A stretch of DNA of 64,000 nt from Escherichia phage vB_EcoM-813R1, in the sequence record ON470617.2; one strand, written 5' to 3'. Shown here in pieces: positions 10,784 to 28,396 of this stretch. Each line of letters opens with the position of its first letter. Position 1 is the stretch's first letter. Both the position numbers and the translations under genes were made by a program. The notes beneath the pieces are model-generated. The model had not been told where the DNA came from. It worked only from the letters and a program-made list of their open reading frames with translations, and searched no databases.

Positions 10784-13700
10784 ATGAACAAGCTATCTAT
10801 GGGGGTGTTTCGCTGTTCAAGTGTCAGCGAAATATTGAAATACATTAGGGCAATAACATCTCACCGAGCGCCGATTAGATACGGCGTGGAAAAGGTGGAA
10901 GGCAAAAGCTATGACCGACTACGCCGGGAGGCGAATCAGAAGGCGATTGATTTGCTTAATTCGCTGGTGGACGGCGCGACACTGACAGATGAACAGCGCC
11001 AGATCCTGGCTGGGTACACCGGTGAAGGCGGCATTGGCGGGTCCGTCTCCGAATATTACACACCAAAGCCGATCGCTGAAGGTGTCTGGGAGATCATGAA
11101 GCTCTACGGCGCGGACGTAGGTAACACTCTGGAACCATCGGCGGGAACCGGCGTTTTTAATGAGACAAAACCGGTTGGTACGGTGATGACCGCGACTGAG
11201 ATCAGCAGTGTTTCCGGTCGTATAAACCAGCTGTTACATCCGGAAGACAGCGTACAGATTTCCCCGTTCGAACAACTGGCTGTAAGCACGCCTAACGATT
11301 CATTCGACCATGTGGTGGGTAACGTTCCGTTCGGTGGTCGTGATAACACACGCAACATCGATAAACCTTACGCAGAAGAAACGGACATGGGGTCTTACTT
11401 CATGCTCCGCATGTTGGACAAGATAAAGCCTGGCGGATTCATGTGCGTGATTGTGCCGCCGTCCATTGTTTCAGGTTCAAACATGAAGCGGTTACGCCTG
11501 CGTCTATCCCGTAAAGCTAAATTTCTTGGCGCTCACCGCTTGCCTACCGGTACTTTTGACGCAAACGGGACCAGTACGGTCGTTGATGTGGTGCTGATGC
11601 GTAAACATCCGGCAGAGATGGCTGAGAAAATCCCCTGGTGGATGAAGGCACTCTTGAATCGGCAAATGTGCTTTGGCCAACGTTTATTTCTGGCAAGTGG
11701 TTTGAAAAGGACGGCCGCCGGTTTGTTCATGGTACTCAGGAGAAGGGATTCCAGGGCGTATTGAGGTTCGTGCCGACGGGCAGATTGATAACCTGGCTCT
11801 TAAAGCGAAGCTGATTCATCGTTTCGAAAGTCGTATCGACTGGTCTTTGCTCGATATGGCTGAACCGTCACCGACCGCAGATGTTGTTGATGAAGGGGAA
11901 ATGCGCCTGATTAATGGCGTATGGCAAAAATATGCTGGTGGTCGCTGGATTGAAGCTGATGCCGGGAAGGAGCTGAAGATTGATGTTGCCAGTTATGGCG
12001 CGGATAGCTGGGAGGCTCTTCAGCGTAACCTGACTACCACAGAAGGTCGTCTCGGCATGACATTTACCCAGATGGCAAATGTCCGCGATAAGTACACCAC
12101 ATCAATCAGCGACGATATGGTGCAACTGGTGGACTGGATTAACAGCCAGCCTGAAAAATACCGTGAACGCTTGTATCGCGGGGCGATGATTGGCCGGATG
12201 TTAATTGAATATCAGGATATGAAGGCCGCCGGGCATAGTGCTGAACAAATCGAACAGCAGCGCCTTTCTCTGGTATCCCGTTTGCAGGCAGAGATTGACC
12301 GCTTTGGTAATCCTGGTCGCGGTCCTATAGCGAAATTGTCGGGGAGCGGTGCGCGCGCCTGGTTTGCTTTCCGTGGTGCGATTAAGCTGGATGGCACTAT
12401 TTCAGACGAGCTGACAGGAAAGCTGGTTACGCATGACTCCAGCGCCAGTTATGACTCCACCAGCTATCAGGACACCCTGCGTTATCTCTATAGCGATCTT
12501 ACCCGCGATCCAATCCAGCTCGATGATTTCCGCCTTGCGTTTACCGGCGAACTGCCAGCCAGTGATGACGAGTTGCTTAATTTATTGGCCAGCACCCTGG
12601 TATTGCGGTTTCACCGTATGGCGGGATTGTTCCGTTTGCCCGCGCCACCAGCGGCGACATTAACGAGATAGTGGCTCCAAAACAGGAATTCCTCGCCACG
12701 CTCCCCGACGGTCCAGTAAAGAACAACGTCCTTAATCAGCTGGCAGCGATCGAAGAGAAGCGCATCAAGACGCCAGCAGAGAATATCCGGTTTAAGCTCA
12801 ATAGCCGTTGGTTCGACCGTTCCGTCATTCTGGAATTTTTGCAGGAAAACGGCTATCCGGATCTGCGCTATGTGCAGTCAGTGCAGCTGGAAGGCGACGA
12901 AATGGTTTCTGACACCTATCACGGTGGTGATGGCCTGTTCGTAGGACACCGATACGGTGTCGTCCAGCGCAAGGATAAAGAAACAGGCGAGATCCGCTAC
13001 GAGTGGGACCGTAAATCAGGTGAAAACGCGACCGGGTTCCCGGCACAGCTGGAAAAGTATCTCAATGGTGCGCGTATCGGTGGCAAAGATAGCGCGACGG
13101 CGAACGGCTACCGCGAGCAGATGGCACTGCTTGAGGACCAGTTCAATAAGTGGATCAAGACGCACGATCGCTACGATGAGTTGGTTGCCAAATACAACGA
13201 TGTGTTCAATAGCAATATCCCGTATGAACACTCTGGCGATCCGCTTGGGTTGAAGGGATTAAGCGGTAAGCGCCAGCCATTTGATTACCAGAATAGCGAG
13301 GTGCGCCGACTGTCCGAAGATGGGCGCGGCATCCTGGGCTTCGGCACCGGGCTGGGTAAAACGACGACCGCGCTGGCGCTTGAGGCGTTCAACTATGAGA
13401 ACGGTCGCTCCACCCGTACTGCTTATGTAGTGCCTAAAGCAGTGCTGGAAAACTGGTATTACGAAGCAAAAGAGTTCCTGAGTGAAGAGGCATTCAGTAA
13501 CTACCTGTTCGTCGGTCTTGATGTGCTGATGGATGGCGATCAGATTCGCCAGGTGCCGGTGCTCGATGAGAACGGTAAACCTGTTCTTGGTACTGATGGC
13601 ACTCCAGTTATGCGCGATGCTCTTAAGCTGGCAGATGAAGCCACTATCACGGCGCGGATGAACGCGATCCCGCACTCAAATTACCGTGCAGTCGTGTTTA

Positions 13701-25337: not shown

Positions 25338-26369
25338 CTAATCACCATCTTCCAGCAGGCGCACCATTGCCCCCGTTTCACTATCCAGATTACGGATATA
25401 GTTCATGACAATATTTACGTTGGTCCAGCCACCAGCTTGCATGATCTCCGGTATTGAAACTCCGGCGCGGGCCATATCTCGCGCGGCTCCGACACGGGCA
25501 CTGTGTCCAGACCAGGCAAGGTACCTCTGGCCAGAGTCATCCTTAGCCCCGTAAATCAATCGGTGAGTTGCTTCAAAAATCCCTTCCAGGGCGCGAGTTG
25601 ATAGCTGGCTGGTGGCAGATGGCGCGGCAACACCATTTTTTCTGACACGGCAAAACAAGTAGTTATTCGGATCATCAGCCACACCAGAGACAGTAATCCA
25701 TCGCTCAACCAGTTTAGTTACCCCCAGACTAAGTGCCTTCTCTACACCAGCGGTGCTAACCAGCGTTTTCGTTCTGCCAATATGGATTAACATTCTCCCA
25801 CCGTCAGTACGTGAGATATCTTTAACTCTGATCCTAGAAATTTCGGCTATACGTAACAGGGTGTTATAAGCAATCCCCAGAAATGCCAGATTACGTATAT
25901 CCTGGCAGCGATCGCTATTTTCCATGAGTGAACGAACCTGGTCGAAATCAGTGCGTTCGAACGCCAGCGCCTGTTTTGCACGCTCACCGGCATCAACGTT
26001 TTCTTTTCGGATCCGTCGCATGACCAGTGAAACAGCATTGCTGTCACTTGGTCGTGGCAGCCCGGACCGACGATGAAGCATATTTAGCTGGCCCAAATGT
26101 TGCTGGATAGTTTTCACTGCCAGACCGCGCGCCTGAAGATATAGAAGATAATCGCGAACATCTTCAGGTTCTGCGGGAAACCACTTCCGGTTATTCAACT
26201 TGCACCATGCCGCCCACGACCGGCAAACGGACAGAAGCATTTTTCAGGTATGCTCAGAAAACGCCTGGCGATCCCTGAACATGTCCATCAGGTTCTTGCG
26301 AACCTCATCACTCGTTGCATCGACCGGTAATGCAGGCAAATTTTGGTGTACGGTCAGTAAATTGGACAT
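25338..26369 (-). CDS. cre: Cre site-specific tyrosine recombinase, with in-frame TGA at codon 42 in this assembly
   Basis: ATG at 26369 gives MSNLLTVHQNLPALPVDATSDEVRKNLMDMFRDRQAFSEHT, then TGA at 26244-26246 where Cre has Trp42, then KMLLSVCRSW... to the Cre C-terminus ...MVRLLEDGD; the ORF track starts at Met44. Confidence 0.9.
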
Positions 26370-26787
26370 TTAACACTCAGATAATGGTTTTAAGTAAAGT
26401 GTACAGGATCGGCTCTGCCTTTACCTGTTTATGGTTCTCGTCATAGAAACGCCAGCGACCGCGCGTGCGTTCTATTTTCTCTTCACCGCGCGATAATGAC
26501 AGTTGACAACTATCACGATCAAACCCTTTTGCCCGCCAGTAACCACGGTTTTTCTCAAGCTCAAGATGAGTGGACACTTTAGCAACTGAATATCCCATTT
26601 TTCACCTCTGATTGATTGGTGGTGCTAAGTGCGCTACGCGAAATCTGGAGCACTAACACTGCCAACTTTTCACAGATTTTACGTAGCGCAACCTTGATCA
26701 AATGATCAAGTGATCACTATTTGACCTGATAAGGTATTGAACTGTATGGATTTACAGGTAAATTGATCATGTTCAATAACCCTTAAG

Positions 26788-26821
26788 ATAACTTCGTATA
26801 ATGTATGCTATACGAAGTTAT
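26788..26821. other. loxP: loxP recombination site
   Basis: Exact 34-bp ATAACTTCGTATA-ATGTATGC-TATACGAAGTTAT, about 420 bp upstream of cre. Confidence 0.95.
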
Positions 26822-27522: not shown

Positions 27523-28346
27523 ATGATAAATTATGTCTACGGCGAACAACTGTACCAGGAGTTCGTCAGCTTCAGGGATCTCTTTCTAAAAAAGCTGTTG
27601 CACGCGCCCAACACGTTGATGCCGCCAGCGACGGTCGTCCTGTACGCCCGGTTGTCGTTCTACCGTTCAAAGAAACGGACAGCATTCAGGCTGAAATTGA
27701 TAAATGGACTTTAATGGCGCGGGAACTGGAACAGTACCCAGACCTCAATATCCCAAAGACTATTTTATATCCTGTGCCTAACATCCTTCGCGGTGTGCGT
27801 AAGGTTACGACTTATCAGACAGAAGCTGTGAACAGCGTCAACATGACCGCTGGCCGCATTATTCATCTGATTGATAAGGACATTCGCATCCAGAAAAGCG
27901 CGGGGATCAATGAGCACAGTGCGAAATACATAGAGAACCTGGAAGCAACAAAAGAGCTAATGAAGCAGTACCCGGAGGATGAAAAATTCCGTATGCGTGT
28001 ACACGGCTTTAGCGAAACAATGCTGCGCGTCCACTACATTTCCAGTAGCCCTAACTACAATGATGGTAAATCAGTTAGTTACCATGTGCCGCTGTGTGGT
28101 GTGTTTATCTGCGATGAAACTCTCCGTGATGGAATCATCATCAACGGTGAATTCGAGAAAGCAAAATTTAGCCTTTATGACTCTATAGAACCGATCATCT
28201 GCGACCGCTGGCCGCAGGCAAAAATATATCGCCTGGCAGATATTGAAAATGTAAAAAACAAATTGCCATCACTCGCGAAGAGAAAAAGGTCAAATCAGCC
28301 GCATCAGTTACGCGCAGCCGTAAAACTAAGAAGGGGCAGCCAGTAA
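27523..28346 (+). CDS. c1: C1 immunity repressor, apparent frameshift in an A6 run
   Basis: ATG 27523 with RBS GGAGGAGG gives MINYVYGEQLYQEFVSFRDLFLKK, then the frame shifts at A-run 27588-27593; the other frame continues AVARAQHVDAASDGRPVRPVVVLPF... to 28346. Confidence 0.85.
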
Positions 28347-28396
28347 ACGACAACCCCGAAAGCGCGCAATAGTTTCTATCCGGCATGGTCAATGAG

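Follow-up and report, generated by a model that had tools for sequence, protein, structure and literature searches.

The cre locus and its in-frame stop

Has a P7-like phage-plasmid lost the full-length form of its Cre recombinase, or was the gene broken only on paper, when the sequence was called? A single base in the record of Escherichia phage vB_EcoM-813R1 (ON470617.2) raises this question. The analysis covered 64,000 nt of that record, a stretch referred to here as the window. Its cre gene is of the P7 type and, at full length (343 codons plus the stop), occupies 25338..26369 on the minus strand with its ATG start at 26369. The minus strand around codon 42 reads GCG TTT TCT GAG CAT ACC TGA AAA ATG CTT CTG TCC. 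The TGA in this reading (26244..26246, read 26246..26244) is codon 42 itself, which is TGG (Trp42) in the relatives of the gene. The original prediction of an in-frame TGA at a position that is tryptophan in wild-type Cre was therefore borne out in the sequence. As written, the window does not contain an uninterrupted 343-codon cre reading frame, and this interruption is judged to be an artefact for the reasons given below.

Two open reading frames were listed at the locus, both on the minus strand. One is the N-terminal part of cre, with 41 aa (26244..26369), and the other begins at Met44 and encodes 300 aa (25338..26240). The 300-aa frame had also been foreseen; with a real TGA, no other long product could be made. 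It keeps the C-terminal Cre motifs LLRIAEI, GHSARVGAARD, GGW, and NYI, which we take to hold R173, H289 and R292, W315, and Y324, respectively. The TGA ends 3 nt ahead of the Met44 ATG (TGA-AAA-ATG), and no Shine-Dalgarno-like sequence was found upstream of Met44 (GGCGTTTTCTGAGCATACCTGAAAA-ATG). Directly upstream of cre lies an intact gene for the Cre-associated protein Cra (73 aa; 26377..26598, minus strand). The adjoining loxP site (26788..26821, minus strand) is an exact match to canonical loxP at 34 of 34 positions, and cra and cre stand in their usual order.

The changed base in the closest relatives

The cre region is also carried by about 700 plasmid records, almost all of them from E. 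coli. The closest records were pEC-16-35-3 (NZ_CP093228.1) and pIso00270_01 (NZ_CP095126.1), and the annotation of both gives cre as an intact gene for a site-specific integrase of 343 aa (WP_047615711.1). This protein is identical to the crystallised P1 Cre (PDB) at 341 of 343 residues. Residue 42 is Trp both in it, encoded by TGG in the nearest relatives, and in the solved Cre structures. The cre DNA of the window is the same as the gene for WP_047615711.1 in pEC-16-35-3 except for base 26244, and this base is the sole difference between the two sequences across 1,501 bp around cre.

On the plus strand, base 26244 is T in the window and C in the relatives, which corresponds to G to A on the cre strand. 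The relatives carry the motif ACCTGGAAA on the cre strand, or TTTTCCAGG on the plus strand, and this confirmed the CCTGG context that had been proposed for the base. The plus strand reads TTTT-C-CAGG-TATG in the relatives and TTTT-T-CAGG-TATG in the window. The change therefore falls on the outer C of a Dcm site (26244..26248, plus-strand reading), which is CCAGG in the two close relatives and TCAGG in the window. Four T's stand immediately before this base, so that the T4 run of the relatives is a T5 run in the window.

The allele was then sought in public records with a 41-mer centred on the variant, which forces the megablast seed across the changed base. The TGA version had no match in 5,426 complete E. 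coli genomes and 72,556 plasmids, whereas the TGG control matched 630 plasmid records, of which 617 had at least 99% identity. An exact 34-mer with the TGA likewise had no match in genome, viral, and metagenome contig collections. Over the cre region, no 100%-identical record was found in INPHARED, PLSDB, or the RefSeq complete E. coli genomes, where the best match was 99.9%. Two further versions of the cre site were searched in PLSDB: CCCGG, the canonical Nanopore miscall, and TAG, the product of 5-methylcytosine (5mC) deamination. Neither had a match there, so that neither repeated miscalling of the cre site elsewhere nor natural amber alleles were seen in that collection. In a gene-position index, no products of the 300-aa Met44 frame or of the frameshifted 166-aa Ref frame were on record.

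Private differences across the window

Along its whole length, the window is collinear with positions 35341-99393 of the pEC-16-35-3 record, and the alignment contains 6 substitutions and 56 gap openings. With pIso00270_01 as a third sequence, a difference was counted as window-specific when the two relatives agreed against the window. There were 63 such differences: 4 substitutions and 59 indel columns, nearly all of the latter being deletions of 1 nt. A CCWGG motif is touched by 20 of the 63, homopolymers of at least 5 bases account for 37, and 6 are of other kinds; within this last group, the extra C at 53016 is also next to a CCCTGG. Only about 1.5% of the bases belong to runs touching CCWGG, where chance alone would place about 1 event, compared to the 20 observed.

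The deletion rate depended on both run length and motif. Outside Dcm motifs, it was 1 in about 46,000 for runs of 4 bases or fewer, and 2.6%, 20%, 68%, and 2 of 5 for runs of 5, 6, 7, and 8 bases, respectively. In runs touching Dcm motifs, it was 13.6% at 3 bases, 50% at 4 bases, and 100% (4 of 4) at 5 bases. Plain CCWGG motifs lacking extended C or G runs had an error in only 1 of 115 cases (about 1%), with the cre site left out of the count. Between pEC-16-35-3 and pIso00270_01, the same 64 kb contain 224 substitutions but only 4 gaps. Judged from this pair, natural divergence of the element is dominated by substitutions, the opposite of the window's private spectrum.

Of 68 genes with an intact reading frame in the relatives, 25 are disrupted in the window. 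Among these are the genes for the c1 repressor, PacA, the type III Mod and Res proteins, Dam, Ref, and a darB-like methylase. The c1 frame (27523-28372, plus strand) has two 1-nt deletions relative to both relatives, at 27587 and 28252, each in an A7 run. A P1 or P7 prophage that lacks functional c1 cannot be stably maintained. For this reason, the c1 deletions are almost certainly assembly errors, and the lesions of the window cannot all be real. Nor is it credible that a plasmid prophage which is being maintained would carry 25 broken genes out of 68.

Several other features of the window were observed during this comparison. Between 10784 and 23266 on the plus strand, three genes are frameshifted in the window but intact in both pEC-16-35-3 and pIso00270_01: that of the darB-like N6-methylase, with 5 indels plus E246K, and type III mod and res, with 1 and 4 indels, respectively. 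At 51184-51188, an A6 run lacks one A and a CA insertion follows 2 nt on (window TGCAGCAAAC, relatives TGGCAAAC). Neither the simple homopolymer class nor the Dcm class accommodates this difference, which may come from a consensus error at this spot or from a genuine small indel. A gene for an RNA-guided endonuclease of the InsQ/TnpB family (IS200/IS605-type) is truncated at the left edge of the window (1 to about 990, minus strand); in the relatives, its insertion point is immediately downstream of the darA-region genes. The window also has three phage-borne tRNA genes on the minus strand (54939-55014, 57014-57089, and 57092-57167), all confirmed by Rfam. For the first of these, ARAGORN gave tRNA-Met (CAT), while its homologue in the relatives is labelled tRNA-Ile by RefSeq, a label that presumably reflects a lysidine-modified CAT anticodon.

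Three private substitutions remain besides the one in cre. The substitution at 1289 turns CCAGG into CCGGG (Q68R in a 995-aa protein) and is a canonical Nanopore miscall of the central A of a Dcm site as G. The other two lie outside any Dcm motif or long homopolymer: a G-to-A change at 11519, which is the E246K of the darB-like gene, and a synonymous change at 53472 in a dnaB-like helicase gene. These two may be the only real private SNPs of the plasmid.

The TGA as a probable base-calling artefact

The reading that best fits these observations is that the cre TGA is a base-calling artefact and not the mark of a truncated Cre. We assign this reading a probability of roughly 0.9, and on it the TGA is one among some 60 Nanopore-type consensus errors of the window. 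In the actual plasmid, codon 42 is most likely TGG (Trp42) and cre an intact, ordinary gene of the P7 type beside loxP. The methylation-related miscall that the original prediction had offered as an alternative is now favored, given the Dcm context of the base and the way in which errors in the window follow homopolymer length and Dcm motifs.

The consensus error would have arisen in a long-read assembly of the Oxford Nanopore type that was polished poorly or not at all, and the E. coli DNA behind it would have been natively methylated by Dcm. That Oxford Nanopore was the platform is inferred from the error spectrum. 5mC at the inner C of CCAGG or CCTGG would shift the pore current of the surrounding k-mers, and a basecaller model trained without Dcm-methylated DNA would then make miscalls in and beside the motif. 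In cre, the outer C after the T4 run would have been called as T, turning TTTT-CCAGG into TTTTT-CAGG. The changed base would be among the few bases whose signal is disturbed by 5mC, and it is placed at the edge of a T run.

The profile matches the one published for Oxford Nanopore assemblies of Dcm-positive enterobacteria that were left unpolished. Default Nanopore basecaller models were found to perform poorly at Dcm sites, and about 70% of the consensus errors in an enterobacterial genome were in CCAGG or CCTGG, with homopolymer-length errors accounting for most of the rest (Wick et al. 2019; PMC6591954). In E. coli, about 95% of the positions that were discrepant between Nanopore and Illumina data were at CC(A/T)GG (Greig et al. 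2019; PMC6703438). The commonest Dcm miscall reported is at the central base, A to G or T to C, and most often an A is called as G (PMC6703438). Current models for R10.4.1 reach about 99% accuracy at CCWGG, a figure reported with no breakdown of error types by position (PMC11610603). The outer-C-to-T change in cre differs from the commonest reported miscall, which affects the central base. The call of an artefact is therefore based on the sequence context and on the error profile of the whole assembly, and not on a signature described for this substitution.

A real W42* mutation as a possible alternative

Another possible explanation is that a real G-to-A nonsense mutation (C to T on the plus strand), W42*, arose recently and happens to be found inside an otherwise error-laden assembly. 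The plasmid would then be Cre-null, or termination and reinitiation at the ATG 3 nt past the stop would yield small amounts of a Cre without residues 1-43. We consider this unlikely. The TGA is present in the sequence as given, C to T is a common spontaneous transition, and the two private substitutions outside motifs, if real, would mean that the lineage has some real private changes. The TGA-AAA-ATG layout would also permit reinitiation. On the other hand, the rest of cre is identical to that of the relatives and has no sign of decay. The original prediction of a real W42* allele, with only a 300-aa Cre left to be made from Met44, found no support, as the allele is unique among the roughly 700 public records that carry cre and is accompanied in the window by 59 other private indel columns and by the 25 broken genes.

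The odds can be put roughly in numbers. The error rate of about 1% per plain CCWGG was compared to about 1.6e-4 real SNPs per given 5-bp motif, which was obtained from the 2 likely real SNPs (11519 and 53472) per 64 kb. This would give a likelihood ratio in the order of 50 to 1 for an error, before any selection against a cre nonsense mutation is considered.

The position of the change within the motif also counts against a real mutation. Dcm methylates the inner C of CCWGG, and deamination of 5mC at Dcm sites is a classical mutational hotspot, as with the amber hotspots of lacI. A change at the inner C would turn TGG into TAG and not into TGA. Thus, the TGA cannot be attributed to this hotspot, and 5mC deamination was rejected as its origin because the changed base is the outer, unmethylated C.

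Cre residues 1-19 are disordered and dispensable, and the crystal and cryo-EM models begin at residue 20 (PMC8860596). Residues 20-43 include helix alphaA with D33 and A36, of which the A36V mutant is defective in synapsis; in the Cre tetramer, alphaA docks on alphaC and alphaE of the neighbouring protomer, and helix alphaB sits in the major groove of loxP (PMC8860596). If the TGA is real, the Met44 product would very probably fail in synapsis because residues 20-43 hold helix alphaA. The start of helix alphaB is taken here to be near residue 42. The spacing in TGA-AAA-ATG could allow weak termination-reinitiation. It had been predicted that loss of helix A impairs synapsis. That part is reasonable on the condition of a real stop, since residues 1-43 include helix alphaA, D33, and A36 (PMC8860596), and a product lacking the helix would be defective in both synapsis and dimer resolution; the stop on which it depends is the part that is unsupported. 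Slightly less probable again is the complete scenario, in which a P7-like phage-plasmid has just lost full-length Cre and survives either with no Cre-mediated dimer resolution and cyclisation or with low-level Cre minus residues 1-43.

Read-through and mutator decay as remote possibilities

Two more exotic readings were weighed, and even together they are very improbable. In the first, a genuine UGA is bypassed by read-through or recoding, as by insertion of Trp, and the cell still obtains full-length Cre. Among the stop codons of E. coli, UGA is the leakiest, near-cognate tRNA-Trp can read it at low frequency, as is textbook knowledge, and the wild-type residue is indeed Trp. Even so, this explanation presupposes that the base is real, TGA is found here in none of at least 630 relatives, and the next base is A, a context (UGA-A) that is not known to be strongly leaky. 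We give it hardly any weight.

In the second, all of the lesions in the window are real and W42* is one among many in a decaying P7-like prophage, carried by a mutator host deficient in mismatch repair. Loss of mismatch repair is known to raise homopolymer frameshifts in a length-dependent manner, and 25 of 68 broken genes would agree with decay. A mutator spectrum should include many transitions, yet there are only 4 substitutions beside deletions in 68% of the 7-base runs and in 4 of 4 Dcm-adjacent 5-base runs. Nearly all of the indels are deletions, the enrichment at Dcm-adjacent runs of 3-4 bases is a signature of sequencing and not of replication, and a c1-null P1 or P7 prophage is not stably maintained. 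This origin was rejected, as neither the ratio of substitutions to indels nor the Dcm dependence fits it, and its chances are as slight as those of read-through.

Implications for the use of this sequence

The main import of these findings is one of quality control. Pseudogenes, frameshifts, and nonsense codons in the window are suspect as assembly errors, and the suspects include c1, pacA, res, mod, dam, ref, and cre. Conclusions about gene content, or about a "defective prophage," are unsafe if they are drawn from this sequence. If the stop were true, it would be a modestly interesting natural allele, cre-null or N-truncated, in a P7-like plasmid. It would provide a natural test of whether helix alphaA, or Cre itself, is dispensable for maintenance of the plasmid prophage. 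Even then, it would amount to one point mutation with loss of function, in a gene about which a great deal is known.

Comparison with known systems

The change resembles the 5mC hotspots of lacI in that a one-strand C-to-T change within CCWGG makes a nonsense codon from TGG. It differs from them in the base that is hit, which at the hotspots is the inner methylated C (TGG to TAG) and here is the outer C (giving TGA).

Compared to the Cre-loxP systems of P1 and P7, the locus is ordinary in most respects. About 1.5 kb around cre is 99.3% identical to P7 and 96.8% identical to P1, loxP matches at all 34 positions, and the cra-cre order is the usual one. The difference is that cre as written has a stop at codon 42, which is found in no other public record.

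The closest parallel is with the Dcm and homopolymer errors of Nanopore assemblies. The cre change departs from these in being at the outer C, C to T beside a T4 run, and not at the central base. In the other respects, the window behaves as such assemblies do: its errors cluster in CCAGG/CCTGG and in homopolymers with a bias toward deletions, the host is a Dcm-positive enterobacterium, false SNPs and frameshifted genes result, and the change at 1289 is the canonical central A-to-G miscall.
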